Assembly: GCA_052034955.1 (NCBI GenBank)
Contig: JBPOHZ010000008.1
Span: 27,614-91,613 of the forward strand
Source: Candidatus Saccharimonadota bacterium
GTDB lineage: Bacteria; Patescibacteriota; Saccharimonadia; Saccharimonadales; AWTP1-31
Reading direction: 5' to 3'
Length of the DNA stretch: 64,000 nt
A program made the position numbers and the translations under genes. The notes under the pieces are model-generated. The model saw nothing but the letters and a program-made list of their open reading frames with translations. It ran no database searches and had not been told where the DNA came from. Positions 5,441 through 56,563 of this stretch are shown piece after piece (the first letter of the stretch is position 1; each line of letters opens with the position of its first letter).

Positions 5441-6733
5441 ATGAATATTAAAGCTCGTCTAAAAAATAGATTAAGACCGATACCTCCTGCTCCGGTCATT
5501 ATTATTTCTCTGATGGTTGTTGGTGTGTTAATGATTGTTTTATCGCAGGCTGCCAATAACGCCGCCAACTTCGAGGCAGAGTTTGGAGTACCAAACATCG
5601 CAACAAATACAGGAGATTCACTGGCTTCCAATAATCAAGCCGTCAGATTTGGTAAAGCTTCGACCACGGCATCGGGTAAGTTTTATGTAGTGGGCAAGAA
5701 CATTGTAGATCCCGATGGCAATATCTTTTTGCCAATGGGCGCCAACGTGGGTATGAGACAAGCACCGTATCTAGAGAATAACTACCTTTTTAACTACTTT
5801 GGTACGGCCAACGATAAAAGTGAACAAGTCAAAGCCTGGGGATGGAATACAATTAGACCTAATATTAACTGCGCCCCAACTGGTAGCCCCAGTGCGACCG
5901 AGACTTTGGCTGGCTTAGATCAGTTGGTTAACGAATATACGGCCAAGAAGTTGGTTGTTATGGTCACTTGTCGTGTAACGGTCGGCAGTGATTATGCTTA
6001 CTCAAGTTCGCAGATTCAGGCATCGTTGCCGATGATCAAAGCTATCGCCCAGAAGTATAAGGATAATCCTTACGTTTGGATGAATACTTTCAATGAACCG
6101 ATAGTAAACACTGGTGCATGGTCGTCCCTTAATCAAAGCCTTTATAATGATGTTAGAGCTCTGGCGCCAGATATGCTTTTTGTCGCCGACCTAGCAGGAC
6201 TTGGAAATAACATCGAGAGCCTAGCAGATGGTAATCTAGCAACAACTTTTGGAGCCGGAAAGTGTAACGTCGTATGTGACTGGCACGCTTATGGATTCAT
6301 CAATGGCTACGGCAGCGATGCGACTCACCAGCAGTACATATCTAACGTTGCGTCTAAAAATATTGCCTTGGTAGTAGGGGAGTTCGGCGATCCGCTAAAA
6401 GCAGACGGTAGCCCGCTACGGGCAACCGATCCAACGGTACCGGGGGTAGCAGGAAGCCCAGACCAGAATCGAATTGGCGCAAATGCTGTTATTAAGTATG
6501 GTCCATCAGCTGGCTACGGGTTGATCTGGTGGATAGCAACAGGTGATTCAAACCAAGGCATTGTCTACTCTTTGACCAAAGACAAGACATCTCCTTGGAC
6601 GGTAAATGCATCTAATGCATCAACCAAGCTTGCCCCGGCCGGTAAATTATTCTGGGATCTAACCCATCCTGCACGATCTGTCACCAAGTTTACAGGCAAC
6701 TTGGCGGCTAGCGGTTGTGCCTCGGCAAATTAG
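5441..6733 (+). CDS. Membrane-anchored glycoside hydrolase, GH5-like (clan A)
   Basis: N-terminal TM anchor. FNEP (acid/base-like) and VVGEFG (nucleophile-like) motifs at GH5-like spacing. Start moved from GTG 5432 to ATG 5441 because a TATACT box ends at 5430. Confidence 0.6.
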   Translation: MNIKARLKNRLRPIPPAPVIIISLMVVGVLMIVLSQAANNAANFEAEFGVPNIATNTGDSLASNNQAVRFGKASTTASGKFYVVGKNIVDPDGNIFLPMGANVGMRQAPYLENNYLFNYFGTANDKSEQVKAWGWNTIRPNINCAPTGSPSATETLAGLDQLVNEYTAKKLVVMVTCRVTVGSDYAYSSSQIQASLPMIKAIAQKYKDNPYVWMNTFNEPIVNTGAWSSLNQSLYNDVRALAPDMLFVADLAGLGNNIESLADGNLATTFGAGKCNVVCDWHAYGFINGYGSDATHQQYISNVASKNIALVVGEFGDPLKADGSPLRATDPTVPGVAGSPDQNRIGANAVIKYGPSAGYGLIWWIATGDSNQGIVYSLTKDKTSPWTVNASNASTKLAPAGKLFWDLTHPARSVTKFTGNLAASGCASAN

Positions 6734-6774
6734 TAAAGAGCTAACGTTTGTCCTGTTATACTAAAGGTAAGTTT

Positions 6775-9985: not shown

Positions 9986-10398
9986 GGGGCTGAATTTTAA
10001 GCTCGACGTTGGACTTTAACAGACTTTAATGGCAGGCCGGATTGATCTACACGTTAGCTGGATCAAAATTATAGTTGCAGAAAAATCTACAGCTCGCGGA
10101 TCTCTAATTAAAGAACTAGCTGCAAAGCTTGTTCCTAATTCAGAGTTCGCACTAGCAGCCTAATTTAATTAGACTGCCGCTTCATAAGTGACATCAGATA
10201 ATTTATGTCAGCGCTATATACTTCTGATTGCTCCAGACTTATTTGCCCATAAGTTTGGCTAAGCCTTAGGGCTGCAGCCATTACATTTTTTGTTTGTTTA
10301 CACTGTTTTGGCTAAAGAAACATCCAAACAAACTAAGCCTGTAGTCATAAAGCCATGTTAACTGACGGACGCGGGGGCAGTACCCGCCAGCTCCACCA
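9986..10398 (+). ncRNA. ssrA: tmRNA (SsrA)
   Basis: 5' GGGGCUGA pairs with 3' CAGCUCC-A-CCA, including the G3:U wobble. T-stem is GCGGG/CCCGC. An internal tag reading frame ends ...NSEFALAA-TAA (stop 10161-10163). An intrinsic terminator follows. The resume codon is uncertain. Confidence 0.9.
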
Positions 10399-20272: not shown

Positions 20273-20337
20273 AAGATAATTGACACAAATACAAAAATAA
20301 TATATCGTATTCAATGACTATTAAGTCATACGTTGAT

Positions 20338-20392
20338 CTGCATATCTGTATTTGGTCGCTTGGATAAGCAGGGAGTAAGTAGCGAAACCGGG
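20338..20392 (+). promoter_or_regulatory. Candidate cis-regulatory pseudoknot RNA, copy D
   Basis: P1 is CUGCAUAUC/GAUAAGCAG. The loop carries GGUCGCU, complementary to the downstream AGCGA-AA-CC. A TTGACA box lies at 20280-20285. The RBS-sequestering hairpin UCUCUAUC/GAUAGGAGA (20424-20446) precedes ATG 20452. Confidence 0.6.
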
Positions 20393-20451
20393 ACGAATCT
20401 CTCTTGAATACAAGTTTGTTCGATCTCTATCAATTAAGATAGGAGACCTTT

Positions 20452-43492: not shown

Positions 43493-44386
43493 ATGAATAA
43501 AGTCATTCTCTATTATAAATTTGTTCCAGTTCCTGACCCGGCCATGACTATGCATTGGCAAAAAGAGCTTTGCAATCGTCTTGGCCTAAAAGGACGGGTA
43601 ATTATTAGCAAACACGGTATCAATGGTACGCTTGGTGGCGAAATTGAAAACTTGCGTGAGTATAAGCGCGAGATGAATCGCTCAATTACCTTTAAAGGGA
43701 TCATGTATAAATGGAGTGATGGCCATAAGGAAGGTCAGAAGCCAGACTTTCCGCGCTTAAGCGTTAAGGTCCGTGATGAGCTTGTAGCTTTTGGCGCCCC
43801 GGAAGAAGTCAAAGTTGACGAAAAAGGCGTAATTGGTGGCGGCAAACACCTCAAACCCGAAGCTGTGCATAAGTTGGTAGAAGAGCGTGACGATGTAATA
43901 TTCTTTGACGGACGTAATGCCTATGAGGCGGCAGTGGGTAAGTTCAAGGACGCAATTGTCCCTGATACTCAAACAACCAGAGATTTCCTAGATGAACTAG
44001 AGGGCGATAAGTACGCCGATATCAAAGATAAGCCGGTAGTTACATATTGTACCGGTGGAATTCGCTGCGAAGCACTTAGTGTGCTGATGAAAAATCGTGG
44101 CTTCAAAGAGGTCTACCAAATCGACGGCGGCATTGTGAAGTACGGCGAAAAATACAAAGACGATGGCTTGTGGGAGGGCGCACTTCATATTTTTGACGAC
44201 CGCATGACTCATCGTTTTAGTGATAAATCTAAGGACATTGGCGAGTGTGTCCATTGTGGTGGAAAAACTAGCCGATACATAAACTGTGCAGATGTGTCAT
44301 GCAACAAGCTAGTACTGGTTTGTGATAAATGTGACAAGAAAACGCACTGTAAATTGCACCAAACTGCCGATATTAAGCATATCTAG
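43493..44386 (+). CDS. trhO: Rhodanese-domain tRNA uridine(34) hydroxylase (YceA/TrhO family)
   Basis: 297 aa. The N-terminal YYKF... start typical of YceA, rhodanese active loop YCTGGIRCE, and a C-terminal Cys cluster CVHCG...C..C. Confidence 0.8.
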   Translation: MNKVILYYKFVPVPDPAMTMHWQKELCNRLGLKGRVIISKHGINGTLGGEIENLREYKREMNRSITFKGIMYKWSDGHKEGQKPDFPRLSVKVRDELVAFGAPEEVKVDEKGVIGGGKHLKPEAVHKLVEERDDVIFFDGRNAYEAAVGKFKDAIVPDTQTTRDFLDELEGDKYADIKDKPVVTYCTGGIRCEALSVLMKNRGFKEVYQIDGGIVKYGEKYKDDGLWEGALHIFDDRMTHRFSDKSKDIGECVHCGGKTSRYINCADVSCNKLVLVCDKCDKKTHCKLHQTADIKHI

Positions 44387-44400
44387 CGTAGCAAGCGGTA

Positions 44401-44430
44401 TTGACAACGCTAGTCAATAGGATATAAAAT
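44401..44430 (+). promoter_or_regulatory. Sigma70-like promoter for RNA copy A
   Basis: TTGACA (44401-44406), then a 16-18 nt spacer, then TATAAAAT (44423-44430). Confidence 0.55.
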
Positions 44431-44469
44431 ACTATTACTACTAAGTCTATTTGTTGTGTAGGCATCGAT

Positions 44470-44521
44470 ACCTCGCACTAATCTGGACGCTTGTGAAAGG
44501 TTGAGCCAATAGCGTAACCGG
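44470..44521 (+). promoter_or_regulatory. Candidate cis-regulatory pseudoknot RNA, copy A
   Basis: P1 is ACCUCGCAC/GUGAAAGGU (7 of 9 positions paired). The loop carries GGACGCU (44485-44491), complementary to AGCGU-AA-CC (44511-44519). Confidence 0.6.
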
Positions 44522-44546
44522 ACCTTCAAGTAGACGAAGTGGTGTT

Positions 44547-44579
44547 CCCCGGGCAGAGATGTCCGGGGTTTTTGTTTTG
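44547..44579 (+). terminator. Intrinsic terminator following RNA copy A
   Basis: Stem CCCCGG/CCGGGG with a 10-nt loop, followed by TTTTTGTTTT. Confidence 0.8.
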
Positions 44580-44594
44580 TATAGAACCAGGTAA

Positions 44595-44623
44595 TTGACA
44601 AATAATAAACAAAGTCGTAAAAT
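44595..44623 (+). promoter_or_regulatory. Sigma70-like promoter for RNA copy B and gene 44763
   Basis: TTGACA, a 17-nt spacer, then TAAAAT. Confidence 0.6.
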
Positions 44624-44660
44624 ATGACTAATCAAAGCAATTTGGTTGTCGACTAAGAAG

Positions 44661-44712
44661 CAGTACTCGTATTTGGACGCTTGAGTATTGTGGAGTCACT
44701 AGCGTAACCGGG
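44661..44712 (+). promoter_or_regulatory. Candidate cis-regulatory pseudoknot RNA, copy B
   Basis: P1 is CAGUACUCG/UGAGUAUUG (9 bp, 2 G-U). Loop GGACGCU (44675-44681) is complementary to AGCGU-AA-CC (44701-44709). An RBS-sequestering hairpin lies at 44741-44759. Confidence 0.6.
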
Positions 44713-44762
44713 CAACAAGCTACTCTATTGAGTATCTCGAGCTCTTATAAATAAGGAGCAAT

Positions 44763-46163
44763 ATGAATCACGAAAGATTAGTCGGCAGCTTGCTTGCCGT
44801 AGGAATGCTGGCGTCTACACTTGCGCCACAAGATACAAGTGAATTTCAAGTTATAGCTAAAACCGAAGATGTCACTCAACAAGTAGGTAGTATAGCTTGC
44901 ACTATAAATGAATCGGCTGGACTGCATGGCTATCCAATACCATTTTTAATAGATAGGGCATATGCCCATCCCGACCCAGGTGCATTAGTCAAAAAACCCA
45001 GTGAAGAAGTCGAAGATTATGTAACGGCTGAAGAATTGATTTCCGATTTAGATTATCGTCTTCCATTTCCTTTAAAGTCTTCTGAGATAAGTGATACTCC
45101 AAGTCATATGTATCGAGAAAACATTAAAAACGTAGTAGCTGATCTCGCCAGGGATCTAGAAGGCCTGCCTTTATCGTTTATAGAAAGAGGATTTATACAG
45201 GGAATTGCCTTTCGAACAGAGTTAAGAGATGAAAATGACGAAGTTGTTTCATCATTATTTGGTGATGATGGAATACTAAGACTCAATATGACATTGCCAA
45301 GCGATAAATACGGCGAAATGTATTTCGGACCAAAAGCAATGTGGCAAGGAATTTTAAAAGAAGCGGGTCTAGCTGATTGCGATGAGTATAAACGACTTAT
45401 GGAACTAGACACAGAGTTTATGACATTTGGTGGTGACGCCTCTCGTTATGTCGATCGAGTTCTTCCACACAAGGATGTTCGAGATGTTGCTCTTGATATG
45501 CTTCGAATGGGTGCCGGATTCGATGAAGCATGGGACTACTTTGAAGAGCATACCCAGCTGGTATTGCTTGATAATTCCGAAAACTTAGATAGTACTGCAG
45601 ATAAGAATTTTAGAAAGGTACTATCTATTGTTAATGGCATCGATCCAAAACTCAGTCGACAGTTACTAGGCGCTGCTATGCAAAATGGAGATGATAGAAA
45701 AATAGATACACTTCGTGAGACTGAAAAACTTTGGCGTCGTTGGGCTAGCGAAAGGGCACTTCGACAATACCTTGGATATGATAAGCCGGAGATTGATGAT
45801 ATGGAACCTATCTATCCAGCATCCAGAGCAATTGATTCGGATGGTGAGTTAGATTTGCCATACATTGATGTACCAGTTGGGGAGTATACCGTTGGAGTCA
45901 GATTCGACCATCAACGAGAACGTTTATACTCGATTGTAAGCGGCGTTGGTGTCGGAGAATGGGGAACTATCGAACAAAATATAGCTAGCCGTGAATTTGA
46001 TGAACTATATGTTCGGGCTGCATTTTCACAGATACTCGGAGTAGCCCCAGAAGAACTTGTGCTTGAAGAATTTGTTTCGACTAGAGAAGACGGATATAGT
46101 GATCGAGCTATAGCAGTTGATGCAACTGATTGGGAAGGTTTTAGCAAGATTGTCGAGAAATAA
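44763..46163 (+). CDS. Hypothetical secreted protein
   Basis: 466-aa ORF with AAGGAG 6 nt upstream and an N-terminal signal-like LVGSLLAVGMLASTLAP. No known motif recognised. Confidence 0.65.
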   Translation: MNHERLVGSLLAVGMLASTLAPQDTSEFQVIAKTEDVTQQVGSIACTINESAGLHGYPIPFLIDRAYAHPDPGALVKKPSEEVEDYVTAEELISDLDYRLPFPLKSSEISDTPSHMYRENIKNVVADLARDLEGLPLSFIERGFIQGIAFRTELRDENDEVVSSLFGDDGILRLNMTLPSDKYGEMYFGPKAMWQGILKEAGLADCDEYKRLMELDTEFMTFGGDASRYVDRVLPHKDVRDVALDMLRMGAGFDEAWDYFEEHTQLVLLDNSENLDSTADKNFRKVLSIVNGIDPKLSRQLLGAAMQNGDDRKIDTLRETEKLWRRWASERALRQYLGYDKPEIDDMEPIYPASRAIDSDGELDLPYIDVPVGEYTVGVRFDHQRERLYSIVSGVGVGEWGTIEQNIASREFDELYVRAAFSQILGVAPEELVLEEFVSTREDGYSDRAIAVDATDWEGFSKIVEK

Positions 46164-46274
46164 CACAACACTTTCTATCTAATAAGTATATATTTTAGAT
46201 AACTTTGTTGACAAATATCAAACTTACGTAGTACGCTTAAATCAATCAAAGCAATTTGGTTGTAGACAATGAAA

Positions 46275-46326
46275 CAATACTCGTATTTGGACGCTTGAGT
46301 ATTGCGGAGTCAGTAGCGTAACCGGG
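46275..46326 (+). promoter_or_regulatory. Candidate cis-regulatory pseudoknot RNA, copy C
   Basis: P1 is CAAUACUCG/UGAGUAUUG. The G-to-A change relative to copy B converts a G-U pair into A-U. GGACGCU is complementary to AGCGU-AA-CC. TTGACA lies at 46208-46213. Confidence 0.6.
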
Positions 46327-46352
46327 CAACGAAAAACTAATCTCATATAAGA

Positions 46353-46389
46353 GCGGTTTGGCCCATACGCCAAGCCGCTTTTGATTTTT
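46353..46389 (+). terminator. Intrinsic terminator following RNA copy C
   Basis: Stem GCGGTTTGGC/GCCAAGCCGC (one G-U), loop CCATAC, then TTTTGATTTTT. Confidence 0.75.
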
Positions 46390-46454
46390 ATAAACAAGCT
46401 AGAAACCTTGGTGAGGGGTGTTTTCTGCTGCCTAAAAACTGGAAGGCTTTGAAA

Positions 46455-49331
46455 ATGAAACATTTTAATGATGGTATGCCGTCTGCCGACTCTGCGGAGT
46501 TAGAGGCTATTTTGACTTACGTTAGGCGTGACGATGAACCGCTTTTCTGTGATCCAAATTCCATTCCTGGCCCCGACGAAATTATGCAAGAGCTGGGCAT
46601 TGACGAGGTGACGATTCCACGAATGCCTCGACTAAGAGCTGACCAACGATTTGATTATGAATCAACTAGGACTTTATCAGCAAGGGATGTGGGGGCGCGT
46701 CGTTTGCCTAGTAATGCCACCGTAGTTAGGGATAAAGATGGACAGTTCCGAGTAGACTTTAGGGTTGACCCCATGAGTCCAGCGAATATCGTGCGAACTC
46801 AAGCCGCTCTTACGGGGATGTTTGGACGTGCGGCTAGCGAAGCATTAGTTAACCCATCGGTTCAAAAAGAAGTAGATCCTCGTGATCGTCCCAATCCTCT
46901 TCCGCCGGGTTCTGTAAAAACTCTAGACGAATATATGCGGGAAGCGGTGGTATTTGGGGCTGATGCCCTACAAGAACGTAAAGACGAAGTGCGTTCAGTA
47001 GTTGCTGCAAGTGTCATAGCTGGTGTGTTGATGACCGGTACACCCCAGATTAGTGCGCCATCAAGACCTGCAGCTGTGTCGGCTCAGCCAGCGAAGCGAG
47101 CAGGCGAATCTCCGAAGGATATGAAATCAAAGGAATCCACTGATCCAGTAGAACGTGTACTTCCGATTAGCCTGGTTTCCGCAAGTTACGTGCCAAAAAA
47201 ACCGACACATTTGCGCGCAGTCGCTATTGCATTGGGTGTTCCAACAAAGCAAATTAAGGCAGCTAACCCTCATCTTGATCCAAAAGCAGAAATTCCTGCT
47301 GGAACAGTTATAAATGCCGAAGTTAAAACCTCATCGCTGACTATAGATGAGTCAATGCCCGTTGGCTCTGTTGCAAGGGCATTTGGTTTGACTGACGATG
47401 CTGTACTAAGCGTTAATGAACCTAACCAAGATGGACTTCTTCAGGGACGAATAAATATTCCCCGAACGCTAGTCAAGTTAGATGACGGAATGAGGCCTAA
47501 TATTGGAGCAGTGGCAAAAGAATATGGACTTGGCCCCGATCAGGCCCGTGATCTCCATTATGCCAATAATCACACTCCTGCCGGTATTCTGGTTTTGCCG
47601 GTCAATACCGAGATTGGCGATCATCCAGATGCCGTTAATCAGCTGGTCGCCATTGCTCAGTCAGAAAGCGAAGTTATAGATACTCCGGCAATAGTTGTTC
47701 CCGATGCAACGGTTCCTGTTGACAACCCTCCCGCCGAACCACCGATTGTCGAGACTCCACCTGCTGAACCAGCGGTAGTTGAAGCGCCGCCGGTTGTCGA
47801 GACTCCTCCCGCCGAACCGGTAGAGACTACCGTTCCACCGGTCTCCGATCCCGAGTCTACGCAACTAGACAACACGTCAACTACCTTACCTACTGCCGAA
47901 CCGCCAGTTATCGAAACACCGCCCGCCGAACCGCCGGTAGTCGAAACACCGCCGGTTGTCGAGACTCCTCCCGCCGAACCAGCGGTAGTTGAAGCGCCGC
48001 CGGTAGTCGAGACTCCACCCGCCGAACCGCCAGTTCAGCCTCCAGTACCAACCGGTGCTCCCGATGTCTTTGCATCACAGCGGGATAACCCGAGTATGGG
48101 CGAAAGACCGAATGGTAAGCCGATCAACTCTACAAATACCTGTAACATAACTTCGTTAACCATGGCGCTTCAGGGGCTAGGCTTGCTCCAGGGTGTGGCA
48201 GATGGTGCGCAGCCTGAACAGCTGGTGGTTTTGAAATACTTGAGTGATCTCGCCAAAAAAGGTCGTGATATAACCGATCCATTTACCTTACAAAAACTTG
48301 CTGAGCAATTTGGTGCAAACGGCGAAGTACGTGAGGTGCAGAATAACTTCCTATTCTGGGTGGATCTAAATAATCGACTACTAAACGGTGAGAAGGTAAT
48401 CATGAGCATCTCGGGTCATATAGTTCATGTTAAAGAAATGAATATGATGGGTATCGTCGTCGACGATCCTGCTGGCGCCTCGGTCCTACTTCACAAAGTA
48501 AATGGTCGTTGGGTATCGAGTAGTGATCCGAATATTACCGACCGCTCCGGAACAGAATGGTATGAATTTAGTGCACTCAACAGTAAAAACCCAGCATCAC
48601 CAAATCAACCCGGACAGCCTGGCGACAATCATCTTTGGCCATGGTCAGATGTGGGTGAGTATCAGCACTTTAATTGGGTCTTAACGCTCCGCGGAAATTC
48701 TCCTACGCCTCCACCGGCTCCGCCAGTACCGCCAGTAGCTCCACCAGCCGCAGAAGTACCAGCTCCGGAGCAGCCTCCAGTAGAGACCCAAGCCCCCGTA
48801 ACGGAAGAAGTAGATTATGCAAAACTCGACGCATTACAAAGAAATATTCTACCGGTTACGGCAGGCATACCTGCCGAGTACCTCCCGCTCATTAAGGCTA
48901 GCGAGCACTTTTCGGCCATCCAGCTTGCCGCTCAGATAAAGAACGAGAGTAACTTTAATCCAAATGCCCGAAGCGGTGCTGGGGCTGTTGGCCTTGGACA
49001 GTTTACGAATGGAGCTTGGGATGAAATGGGCAGAAGATATCCTGAGCTCACCAACCCAAATGCCAGTCGTAATGATCCCGTCGAGTCAATTATTCGACAG
49101 CGACTTTATATGGACGATATGTACGATCTTGTTCAGAAGTATTTATCAGAAGGCAAGATAAGCGGCGATCCTATTGAGTTGACCTACGCAGCATACAACG
49201 CCGGGATGGGTAATGTCTTGAAGTACAAGGGTGTCCCACCGTTCAAAGAAACTAAAACATACATCGCACGAAATAAGCAGACAATCATGGAATTCGTCCT
49301 ACAAGTAGCGACGGAAAATCCAGGAATTTAA
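46455..49331 (+). CDS. Large secreted cell-wall-active protein: LysM-like repeats, Pro-rich linkers, Cys/His peptidase-like domain, C-terminal GH23 lytic transglycosylase (SLT)
   Basis: GGAAGG lies 8 nt upstream of ATG 46455. Three LysM-like segments. TCNITSL (Cys codon 48141-48143) and SGHIVHV (His codon 48417-48419). SLT motifs IKNESNFNPNA (Glu codon 48945-48947), GLGQF and AYNAGMGNV. Confidence 0.75.
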   Translation: MKHFNDGMPSADSAELEAILTYVRRDDEPLFCDPNSIPGPDEIMQELGIDEVTIPRMPRLRADQRFDYESTRTLSARDVGARRLPSNATVVRDKDGQFRVDFRVDPMSPANIVRTQAALTGMFGRAASEALVNPSVQKEVDPRDRPNPLPPGSVKTLDEYMREAVVFGADALQERKDEVRSVVAASVIAGVLMTGTPQISAPSRPAAVSAQPAKRAGESPKDMKSKESTDPVERVLPISLVSASYVPKKPTHLRAVAIALGVPTKQIKAANPHLDPKAEIPAGTVINAEVKTSSLTIDESMPVGSVARAFGLTDDAVLSVNEPNQDGLLQGRINIPRTLVKLDDGMRPNIGAVAKEYGLGPDQARDLHYANNHTPAGILVLPVNTEIGDHPDAVNQLVAIAQSESEVIDTPAIVVPDATVPVDNPPAEPPIVETPPAEPAVVEAPPVVETPPAEPVETTVPPVSDPESTQLDNTSTTLPTAEPPVIETPPAEPPVVETPPVVETPPAEPAVVEAPPVVETPPAEPPVQPPVPTGAPDVFASQRDNPSMGERPNGKPINSTNTCNITSLTMALQGLGLLQGVADGAQPEQLVVLKYLSDLAKKGRDITDPFTLQKLAEQFGANGEVREVQNNFLFWVDLNNRLLNGEKVIMSISGHIVHVKEMNMMGIVVDDPAGASVLLHKVNGRWVSSSDPNITDRSGTEWYEFSALNSKNPASPNQPGQPGDNHLWPWSDVGEYQHFNWVLTLRGNSPTPPPAPPVPPVAPPAAEVPAPEQPPVETQAPVTEEVDYAKLDALQRNILPVTAGIPAEYLPLIKASEHFSAIQLAAQIKNESNFNPNARSGAGAVGLGQFTNGAWDEMGRRYPELTNPNASRNDPVESIIRQRLYMDDMYDLVQKYLSEGKISGDPIELTYAAYNAGMGNVLKYKGVPPFKETKTYIARNKQTIMEFVLQVATENPGI
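47728..48055 (+). repeat. Pro-rich tandem repeat region (V/I)ETPPAEP(P/A)VV containing long duplicated DNA blocks
   Basis: GTTGTCGAGACTCCTCCCGCCGAACC and GAACCAGCGGTAGTTGAAGCGCCGCCGG each occur twice, about 200 nt apart. Confidence 0.85.
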
Positions 49332-49343
49332 AAAACAAGGATA

Positions 49344-50327
49344 ATGAAAGGAAATACAATGAGCGATCCAGAAAACAGTGCCGAACTAAGAATCCCCAAA
49401 CGACAAAAAAATACAAGACATAATCAGCATCGTATAATACGAAAACCCAAGAGATTAGCTGCTATGACATTAGCTGCCGTACTATCAGTTGGGGCTGCTG
49501 CTGATTACCTTGGTCTTATTGATCTGCCCGGGTTTCCTGATTTTAGCGCTAATCCCGGACAAATCCCGGGCAAGACGGTTTTAGAAGATATTGATATAGT
49601 TAAGTTTAGAGCCAGTAGCACAGATGCTCTGGGAGAAGCTACGGTTAAGGTCGACAGAGTAACTCAAGTTATGATCGACAAACCAGAAAAAGGCGACAAA
49701 AAATCTAATCCACACGAGACACGTATCTATGACGAGGGTGAGTATACTGCTCAGTGGGTTGTATCTGGAGTTTGGAAACCAGAACTTCAGCCAAATGGTG
49801 ACTTAGTAGTAACTCTGCCAGAGTCTCAAGGCAAGAGAATTGTTACCGAAAAGGATCCTAAATATAATGACGATGCCAGCGAAATTGCTACTATGCAATG
49901 GATTGGTAGTTTGGGTGGTGCAAGTACTGAAGATGATATCGCCTATGACAATGCCAGGACAAAGCTTACGGACTGGGCGAACGATCCCGAGCAGAGCGGA
50001 ACTTTCCATAGAGCTGTATCTTGCGTGGCGCTTGCTGGAGCTGCTGGTAAAGCCGAAGCATTTTCGCTTAGTACACCTGTAAATATTGTAAAATTCACTC
50101 CAGCTCGTGAGCCAGTTGCGGCACCAGAAGAAGGACTTCCTACAATTAGCTTCCAGATTCCAAATCCCACAGAAAAGGGAAGTATGCTAAATATGGAAAG
50201 TTGCCTTGAAACCCTTGATGACATGGGTTTTGACCCCAAGACAATGTCAACCGATAACCAAAGCGCCGTTGGCCTGGCAACATATCACATTAAAAAGTTA
50301 GAGTTACCAGAGCATATTCAAGAGTAA
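49344..50327 (+). CDS. Hypothetical membrane-anchored or secreted protein
   Basis: 327-aa ORF. Basic N-terminus followed by the TM/signal segment LAAMTLAAVLSVGAAA. The alternative ATG at 49359 has better AAAGGA spacing. Confidence 0.6.
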   Translation: MKGNTMSDPENSAELRIPKRQKNTRHNQHRIIRKPKRLAAMTLAAVLSVGAAADYLGLIDLPGFPDFSANPGQIPGKTVLEDIDIVKFRASSTDALGEATVKVDRVTQVMIDKPEKGDKKSNPHETRIYDEGEYTAQWVVSGVWKPELQPNGDLVVTLPESQGKRIVTEKDPKYNDDASEIATMQWIGSLGGASTEDDIAYDNARTKLTDWANDPEQSGTFHRAVSCVALAGAAGKAEAFSLSTPVNIVKFTPAREPVAAPEEGLPTISFQIPNPTEKGSMLNMESCLETLDDMGFDPKTMSTDNQSAVGLATYHIKKLELPEHIQE

Positions 50328-56476: not shown

Positions 56477-56563
56477 GCCGCGATGGCGGAATTGGTAGAC
56501 GCGCTAGCTTCAGGAGTTAGTGGGGGTAACCCCGTGGAGGTTCAAGTCCTCTTCGCGGCACCA
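56477..56563 (+). tRNA. tRNA-Leu (anticodon CAG), type II with a long variable arm and encoded CCA
   Basis: Acceptor GCCGCGA/TCGCGGC. Anticodon stem CTAGC/GTTAG with loop TTCAGGA. Variable arm GGGG-TAA-CCCC. T arm GGAGG-TTCAAGT-CCTCT. Confidence 0.93.

Follow-up and report, generated by a model that had tools for sequence, protein, structure and literature searches.

What RNA element stands twice in succession in the 376-nucleotide (nt) gap between a TrhO-type rhodanese gene (trhO, stop at 44386) and the ATG at 44763 of a gene encoding a 466-amino-acid (aa) protein? The locus lies in a 64,000-nt stretch of contig JBPOHZ010000008.1 from a Candidatus Saccharimonadota (Saccharibacteria) bacterium, hereafter the window, whose best DNA matches are metagenome-assembled Saccharibacteria genomes with 70-76% identity in genes. 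An earlier inspection of the letters alone (the sequence-only reading) gave the gap its correct length, counted four copies of an element in the window, and proposed an unclassified pseudoknot RNA motif, naming an Rfam search as the check that would refute novelty. That search has now been run and returned significant matches, and the claim of novelty falls. The four elements are very probably class II cyclic di-GMP (c-di-GMP-II) riboswitches of a Saccharibacteria genome, with cyclic di-GMP (c-di-GMP) as the predicted ligand. They are not a novel RNA class but fresh examples of a known regulator in an already described tandem arrangement.

The window was compared with Rfam 15 at the curated thresholds (gathering scores of 53.5 bits for RF01786, c-di-GMP-II, and 40 bits for RF03169, c-di-GMP-II-GAG). 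RF01786 matched at 44639-44722 and 46253-46336, and RF03169 matched at 20317-20402. A further RF01786 match, spanning the full model, was found with a permissive threshold. A covariance model, R1, was made from our own alignment of 131 aptamers, and its search of the window returned exactly four copies, as had been counted by eye; no fifth copy was found in the 64 kb by this search. The four aptamers are as follows.

44437 to 44543, plus strand: aptamer copy A, of which 44449-44531 is the part matched by Rfam (RF01786, 45.3 bits, E = 7e-9; R1, 65.1 bits)
44639 to 44722, plus strand: aptamer copy B (RF01786, 56.0 bits; R1, 77.5 bits)
46253 to 46336, plus strand: aptamer copy C, a close paralog of B (RF01786, 63.3 bits; R1, 87 bits)
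20317 to 20402, plus strand: aptamer copy D, with a U-A pseudoknot pair (RF03169, 41.2 bits; R1, 64.6 bits)

The RF01786 gathering score is thus passed by B and C and not by A, and D goes to the sister family RF03169. The conserved core occupies 44484-44521, 44674-44711, 46288-46325, and 20353-20391. Its pattern, TTGGNCGCTT..GAG..AGCGNAACCGG, occurs three times in the window versus 0.00 times expected from shuffles, and AGCGNAACCGG itself occurs exactly at 20381, 44511, 44701, and 46315. The class was reportedly first described by Lee et al. in 2010.

Each aptamer is ~84-100 nt long and consists of helices P1, P2 (GGC/GCC), and P3 and of an H-type pseudoknot formed by the P3 loop (UGGNCGCU) with the 3' tail (AGCGN'AACCGG). 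The sequence-only reading had described an element of ~52 nt, which missed the outer helices P1 and P2. Its 9-position helix "P1" is real and corresponds to P3 of the family, but it is not fully complementary in every copy: in copy A (ACCUCGCAC/GUGAAAGGU), seven of nine positions are paired, around a 2x2 internal loop. The pseudoknot stood up to scrutiny, with complementarity of ACGCU/AGCGU plus GG/CC across an AA bulge in all four copies. The strand that had been called invariant, AGCGUAACCGG, is indeed conserved, as the pseudoknot 3' strand of the known c-di-GMP-II family. The helices of the two neighboring copies lie at these positions.

44446-44454 with 44528-44536, plus strand: helix P1 of copy A (GUCUAUUUG with CAAGUAGAC), with an outer extension of 44437-44442 with 44538-44543
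44639-44649 with 44712-44722, plus strand: helix P1 of copy B
44651-44653 with 44695-44697, plus strand: helix P2 of copy B
44660-44668 with 44683-44691, plus strand: helix P3 of copy B
44675-44681 with 44701-44709, plus strand: pseudoknot of copy B

Covariation was analyzed in a sample of one genome per species, scanned with a pattern for this version of the pseudoknot, which gave at least 120 loci (cited below by L numbers). The loci listed come from Saccharibacteria, other Patescibacteria, Trueperaceae (Deinococcota), Bacillota, and Actinomycetota. Five loci in GC-rich genomes (L032, L035, L040, L046, and L085) were chance pattern matches that had no covariance-model match, and they were kept out of the alignment. 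The search pattern fixed six pseudoknot pairs, which are thus uninformative, but it did not fix the stems and left one pseudoknot pair free. Across the 131 aptamers, the pairs of the family structure are formed in 83.5% of cells, versus 31-40% when partners are slid. Cells changed on both sides number 914, versus 353 +/- 20 in shuffles (0 of 500 shuffles reached the observed value). Such double-sided changes were seen in all 20 nested pairs, with a covariation score of 0.556 versus 0.171 in shuffled alignments. The structural interpretation had been made to depend on covariation in a larger alignment, and this covariation is present. At the free pseudoknot pair, 54 sequences have G-C, 44 have A-U, and 28 have U-A, while 5 have no pair. 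These five cells are Bacillota aptamers (Mageeibacillus and others; L017, L038, L042, L043, and L078) with G or A in the loop against A in the tail (TGG[G/A]CGC ... AGCGAAACC), which might be true binding-site variants.

To place the ligand contacts of the c-di-GMP-II structure in PDB entry 3Q3Z on the alignment columns, we relied on what we take to be the 3Q3Z sequence and numbering. All four window copies keep the UGG, GAG, A-N-U, and AACCGG columns intact; the spacer position between helices P1 and P2 is C in copy B, and among the 131 sequences it is A in 114 and C in 12. Published contact nucleotides in 3Q3Z are A13, U37, G39, A61, A69, A70, C71, C72, and G73, and also C68 (PMC7288161). 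The AACCG tract, which is among them, is invariant in this set.

Copies A and B form a tandem, with starts 190 nt apart, between trhO and the 466-aa gene. Its parts are as follows.

43493 to 44386: TrhO-type rhodanese gene (Pfam UPF0176_N, Rhodanese, and Rhodanese_C)
44401 to 44430, plus strand: predicted promoter P1 for copy A, TTGACA-18-TAAAAT (consensus scan, 11 of 12 positions)
44547 to 44579, plus strand: intrinsic terminator T1 after copy A, CCCCGGGCAGAGAUGUCCGGGG and a U run (hairpin 44547-44568, about -18 kcal/mol; terminator scan)
44595 to 44623, plus strand: predicted promoter P2 for copy B, TTGACA-17-TAAAAT (consensus scan, 11 of 12 positions)
44721 to 44734, plus strand: small hairpin UACUC-UAUU-GAGUA, repeating both P3 strands (read from the sequence)
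44741 to 44759, plus strand: hairpin GCUCUUAU/AUAAGGAGC over the Shine-Dalgarno sequence of ATG 44763 (read from the sequence; present in the minimum-energy and aptamer-forced folds)
44763 to 46163, plus strand: putatively regulated gene for a 466-aa protein with a signal-peptide-like N terminus and no Pfam domain

Both promoters, the strong terminator, and the two hairpins after copy B had been placed correctly by the sequence-only reading, which was also right to see aptamers in 5' leaders with terminator or Shine-Dalgarno hairpin platforms, two of them in tandem. The terminator scan found no other terminator between the trhO stop and T1. As a separate observation, 11 nt of the P1/P2 5' strand of aptamer B (UUGUCGACUAA, 44646-44656) can pair, two G-U pairs included, with codons 5-8 of the gene that follows (UUAGUCGGCAG, 44776-44786); this pairing dominates the minimum-energy fold of the long leader and may be due to chance.

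The tandem layout is conserved. A metagenome scan for the B/C-type P1 strand recovered two loci, L135 and L140, which hold an orthologous A-B-C layout (copies at 1692-1789, 1890-1989, and 6125-6224). The orthologous pair starts 198 nt apart, and the adjoining TrhO is 86% identical to that of the window. The intergenic alignment with L135 shows conservation of both promoters, of the aptamer core, and of the terminator, and divergence in stems P1 and P3 of copy A and in the spacer that follows the terminator. The stretch from -35 to -10 of promoter P1 is near-invariant between diverged flanks, and promoter P2 is also preserved (TATTAT for TAAAAT in L135). The copy A ortholog in L135 scores 75.5 bits and shows three compensatory P3 pairs between the two species, and the outer helix is compensated as well (ACUACU/AGUGGU in the window versus ACCACC/GGUGGU in L135). 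A conserved core with compensated changes in the stems indicates that copy A is a maintained structured element and that the two-promoter tandem is a conserved design. The P3-like hairpin also follows the ortholog aptamer, as ACUC..GAGU in the L022a leader and with the same bases in L135. Shine-Dalgarno hairpins of the same kind but of different sequence occur in L121, after copy D, and in L021, the ortholog of copy D. The heptamer UGGUGUU ahead of T1 (window 44538-44546; L135 1789-1801), part of which lies in the P1 outer extension, is conserved in both species despite the diverged stems next to it.

Related arrangements recur more widely. Tandem pairs are present in 16 of the ~115 loci listed. 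An aptamer-terminator-aptamer-gene layout is also found in the Saccharibacteria loci L096 and L058, and the order of trhO followed by a riboswitch recurs in L066, L115, L001, and L010. Saccharibacteria account for 24 of the ~115 loci listed, which are from species-representative genomes, and the 64-kb window alone carries 4 copies; 20 related Saccharibacteria loci gave 15 RF01786 and 4 RF03169 matches. In L022, two riboswitch copies (2170-2500 and 6480-6740, minus strand) have identical upstream sequence of ~170 nt, and copy A was not found there. The near-identical metagenome contigs of L135 and L140 do have the A-B tandem, which suggests that the repeated riboswitch was collapsed during the assembly of L022. 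Aptamers are likewise where the short contigs L121 and L122 end. In L058, a group I intron (RF00028, 71 bits; 6333-6647, minus strand) lies ~2.4 kb upstream of the c-di-GMP-II tandem on the same strand and is not adjacent to it; aptamer-ribozyme pairs of this class have been reported only from Clostridioides difficile (PMC9481103).

Copies C and D stand in the leaders of other genes, with these features.

46348 to 46393, plus strand: stand-alone terminator of copy C, whose loop GCCC-A-UACGC is complementary to aptamer GCGUA-ACC-GGGC (terminator scan)
46456 to 49331, plus strand: gene after copy C, for a ~958-aa protein with a C-terminal SLT lytic transglycosylase domain (Pfam SLT, E 4.8e-13)
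20424 to 20446, plus strand: hairpin UCUCUAUC/GAUAGGAGA over the Shine-Dalgarno sequence of ATG 20452 (read from the sequence; equivalent in the ortholog L021)

The open reading frame (ORF) list starts the SLT gene at TTG 46449; we prefer ATG 46456, which lies behind GGAAGG. A 327-aa ORF without a Pfam match (49344-50327, plus strand) directly follows the SLT gene and is probably co-transcribed with it, which would place it under copy C too. The gene after copy D, 24 kb from the tandem, encodes a 146-aa protein without a Pfam domain. The 466-aa protein downstream of the tandem has only two homologs among 1.84 billion cluster representatives, and a word-based search with it matched only the protein itself. 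An ortholog with 42% identity is flanked by aptamers, and its short contigs break inside aptamers at both ends.

The kinds of genes downstream of the riboswitches recur in relatives. Homologs of the SLT protein follow riboswitches in L022 (copy L022b) and L001, and the downstream protein of L115 is linked to them via L001. Other riboswitch-downstream genes encode an Amidase_2 plus GDSL protein (L066), CAP-domain proteins, and a GH16 hydrolase, and many encode proteins that begin with a signal-peptide-like stretch and lack any Pfam domain. Genes for GGDEF diguanylate cyclases lie directly downstream of aptamers with a U-A pair, as in copy D, in L062 (E 2e-22) and L023 (E 4e-31), which indicates that these organisms make c-di-GMP.

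How the copies might act was examined through their expression platforms. A predicted promoter ends 0-10 nt ahead of every window aptamer, and TTGACA-N16-18-TAnnnT ends at the same distance ahead of nearly every Saccharibacteria copy. In the window, the platform is a terminator for A and C and a Shine-Dalgarno hairpin for B and D. Among the 29 Saccharibacteria aptamers of the pattern set, a stand-alone terminator 22-49 nt after AACCGG is present in 16 and an overlapping one in 2, whereas the other group (mostly Bacillota and Actinomycetota) has 7 stand-alone and 32 overlapping terminators. An overlapping terminator implies ON logic because ligand binding takes away the terminator 5' half, and a stand-alone terminator combined with an aptamer-derived anti-terminator implies OFF logic. 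The prevalence of stand-alone terminators thus suggests OFF logic for the Saccharibacteria copies.

In such terminator-type copies, the pseudoknot 3' strand and the P1 3' strand would, in the absence of ligand, pair with the terminator region as an anti-terminator and allow read-through. With c-di-GMP bound, the pseudoknot and helix P1 would hold those strands, the stand-alone terminator would form, and transcription would stop. In several copies, the aptamer 3' part is more complementary to the terminator than shuffled controls are (z of -4.1 for L022b, -4.4 for L119, -3.2 for L062, -2.3 for L096, -2.0 for L066, and -2.0 for L115), with a mean of -1.2 over 18. In copy C, this duplex reaches -14.8 kcal/mol (z = -2.07 versus shuffles). 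The copy C terminator also occurs in L022, and the terminator 5' half GCGGUUUGG, common to L022b, L115, and L001, resembles the P1 5' strand and is able to pair with the P1 3' strand; in L066, ahead of a different hydrolase, the terminator 5' half is CGGUUUGG. On this evidence, the balance tips slightly toward copy C being an OFF switch.

At the tandem, transcripts from promoter P1 would meet two sensors in series, and those from promoter P2 only sensor B. Copy B would act on translation through its Shine-Dalgarno hairpin. A competing helix of 44675-44689 with 44731-44745 (-13 kcal/mol, z -2.6), to which the hairpin at 44721-44734 contributes, would free the 5' half of the Shine-Dalgarno hairpin. 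An anti-sequestering direction for copy B was considered and withdrawn, since forced folding left the Shine-Dalgarno sequence paired again, now to the released P3 strand. Copy C would control the SLT cell-wall hydrolase gene through a terminator of its own, and copy D would control the small protein gene. ON and OFF states could not be told apart by plain minimum-energy folding of the leaders, which turned the pseudoknot strands into a nested helix.

Several results weigh against parts of this account. Copy A, at 45.3 bits, lies below the RF01786 gathering score of 53.5. The alternative pairing that the sequence-only reading proposed for copy A (ACCGGA/UCCGG) does exist, as a 6-bp anti-terminator CCGGAC/GUCCGG, but it is no better than chance (z = +0.07 versus shuffles); it is also much weaker than the terminator, at -29.1 kcal/mol for the forced anti-terminator fold versus -46.5 kcal/mol for the minimum-energy fold, and by these predictions copy A may terminate constitutively. 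In copy B, the Shine-Dalgarno sequence is paired in both the aptamer and the competing predicted folds. The promoter conserved between T1 and aptamer B is an independent entry point at the sequence level, and the pair, judged by its predicted promoters, is not a simple tandem of two sensors in one leader. No GGDEF, EAL, or HD-GYP motifs were found in the 64-kb window, which cannot settle the whole genome. In C. difficile, all four class II riboswitches that have been tested act as ON switches (PMC6200980), and OFF is therefore not the family default. Finally, C68, one of the published 3Q3Z contacts (PMC7288161), belongs to the covarying pseudoknot pair, and A-U or U-A at this pair may affect specificity.

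The results on copy A bear on the most serious alternative, in which copy A does not control the 466-aa gene. Promoter P1, aptamer A, and T1 would then make a separate RNA of ~140 nt (a c-di-GMP-binding small RNA or decoy), or T1 would mainly be a trhO terminator or insulator, and B alone would control the gene. The strength of T1 (-18 kcal/mol), the absence of a better-than-chance anti-terminator among those found, the near-consensus promoter P2 conserved in L135, and the lack of another terminator from the trhO stop to T1 all fit this alternative. However, the same layout occurs in L058, where no promoter-like site is seen by eye between the copies, and in L096, where the AT-rich spacer has only a weak 9/12 promoter match; both fit serial control, and in L096 the alternative pairing of copy 1 beats shuffles (z -2.3). 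In L135, moreover, the terminator 5' half (CCCCGGAC) repeats the aptamer CCGGAC exactly, as a competing anti-terminator would need. This repeat is the one observation in favor of an anti-terminator in copy A, which we keep as a weak possibility. Tandem riboswitches of the same class with their own platforms are also documented (PMC9481103). We therefore consider the separate-RNA alternative unlikely, at something like one chance in five, and prefer control of the gene by both sensors.

A second alternative keeps the c-di-GMP-II fold but alters its ligand specificity, for example toward another cyclic dinucleotide, through the change of the free pseudoknot pair from G-C to A-U (copies A, B, and C) or U-A (copy D). 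It would fit the ligand contact made by C68 of that pair in 3Q3Z (PMC7288161), the C in the P1-P2 spacer of copy B, and the assignment to RF03169 of copy D together with four related Saccharibacteria aptamers (41-47 bits), which have the U-A pair in common. The pair change, however, is compensated on both sides in 72 of 131 sequences from several phyla and behaves as a structural pair, and C is natural at the spacer position (12 of 131 sequences). The RF03169 consensus differs from that of RF01786 by C before GG in the loop and by GAGACC for GCAACC in the tail, from which we read the meaning of "GAG" in its name. Copy D has neither variant identity: it reads UUUGGUCGC and GCGAAACC, with the U before GG and the AA bulge of RF01786, and its assignment seems to be decided, close to the threshold, by a single base pair. 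We know of no established ligand for RF03169. U-A aptamers also stand ahead of the GGDEF cyclase genes in L062 and L023, which fits feedback by c-di-GMP. Altered specificity is improbable in the light of these data, and c-di-GMP is the most likely ligand.

A new riboswitch or leader class with its own ligand has very little left in its favor, namely that copy A alone scores under the Rfam gathering score. Copies B and C pass that threshold and A matches the full model (E = 7e-9), every conserved core position of c-di-GMP-II is present, and the same sequences occur in Bacillota, Deinococcota, and Actinomycetota with the c-di-GMP-II covariation pattern. It is hardly credible that the elements arose as chance matches or as a mobile repeat, or that they belong to the two minus-strand ORFs of 62-63 aa that overlap the region (44410-44601 and 44447-44635), since the core pattern is expected 0.00 times by chance, the stems vary with compensation around fixed loops as in structured RNA and not as in coding sequence, and these ORFs start with TTG and cross the promoter and the terminator.

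Other RNAs were noted in the course of the searches. A SAM-I riboswitch and an L10 leader are present in related Saccharibacteria loci (L031, 3677-3778, minus strand, and L062, 5286-5414, plus strand), which indicates that several classic cis-regulatory RNAs survive in these small genomes. In the window, Rfam finds a full-length transfer-messenger RNA at 9986-10398 on the plus strand (85 bits, E 1.6e-31), with a long insertion and several weakly paired helices in the alignment; ARAGORN reports none in the window. The only tRNA in the 64 kb is a tRNA-Leu(CAG) with a long variable arm (56477-56563, plus strand).

Saccharibacteria are episymbionts with very small genomes, and the points that merit attention here are the frequency of this class among them, the conserved internal promoter, and the predominance of stand-alone, probably OFF, platforms in front of genes for secreted hydrolases and orphan surface proteins. 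Such genes would make up a candidate c-di-GMP regulon in bacteria that do not lend themselves easily to genetics, and the stand-alone terminators predict a regulatory sign opposite to that of the best-studied examples. In vitro work on these predictions would not require a culture of the bacterium. More speculatively, and with considerable doubt on our part, class II riboswitches could be a main c-di-GMP output in Saccharibacteria and mostly OFF, the reverse of the tested Clostridioides examples. High c-di-GMP would then shut down secreted hydrolases and fast-evolving surface proteins that are maybe used for host attachment or attack, and copy A might yield a free c-di-GMP-binding small RNA.

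Among known systems, the closest is c-di-GMP-II itself (RF01786; PDB 3Q3Z, Clostridium acetobutylicum), with which the window copies share the P1-P2-P3 fold, the loop-tail pseudoknot across an AA bulge, the UGA/UGG/GAG/AACCGG core, and a place in the 5' leaders of genes for cell-surface or secreted proteins. The window pseudoknot GGACGCU/AGCGUAACC (GGACGC/GCGUAACC) differs from the consensus GGGCAC/GUGCAACC by two pairs swapped with compensation. The host also differs, and most Saccharibacteria copies have a stand-alone and not an overlapping terminator. Among the papers searched, none was found on c-di-GMP riboswitches in Saccharibacteria, Candidate Phyla Radiation, or Patescibacteria. With the RF03169 variant, copy D and its four relatives share only the U-A pair, and the unpaired positions of copy D (U, AA) are standard.

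C. difficile likewise has several copies per genome, Cdi-2-1 to Cdi-2-4, which control surface proteins, adhesins, and pili according to c-di-GMP (PMC6200980). All four of those are ON, whereas OFF logic is predicted here for the terminator-type copies. The putative targets differ as well, comprising SLT, Amidase_2 and GDSL (L066), CAP-domain, GH16, and near-orphan secreted proteins and GGDEF enzymes. Tandem c-di-GMP-II riboswitches have been published as 59 doublets and 9 triplets, mostly ahead of surface anchor protein genes (Sherlock et al. 2022, PMC9481103). The A-B pair resembles these in that two full c-di-GMP-II units stand in series at a distance of ~190 nt, a terminator belongs to the first unit, and a gene for a surface or secreted protein follows; the expected effect of such a design is a steeper ligand response. 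The published tandems are mostly from Paraclostridium and associated with a surface anchor protein, and the window pair differs from them by the conserved near-consensus promoter between its units, through which the second sensor would also receive transcripts that never met the first.

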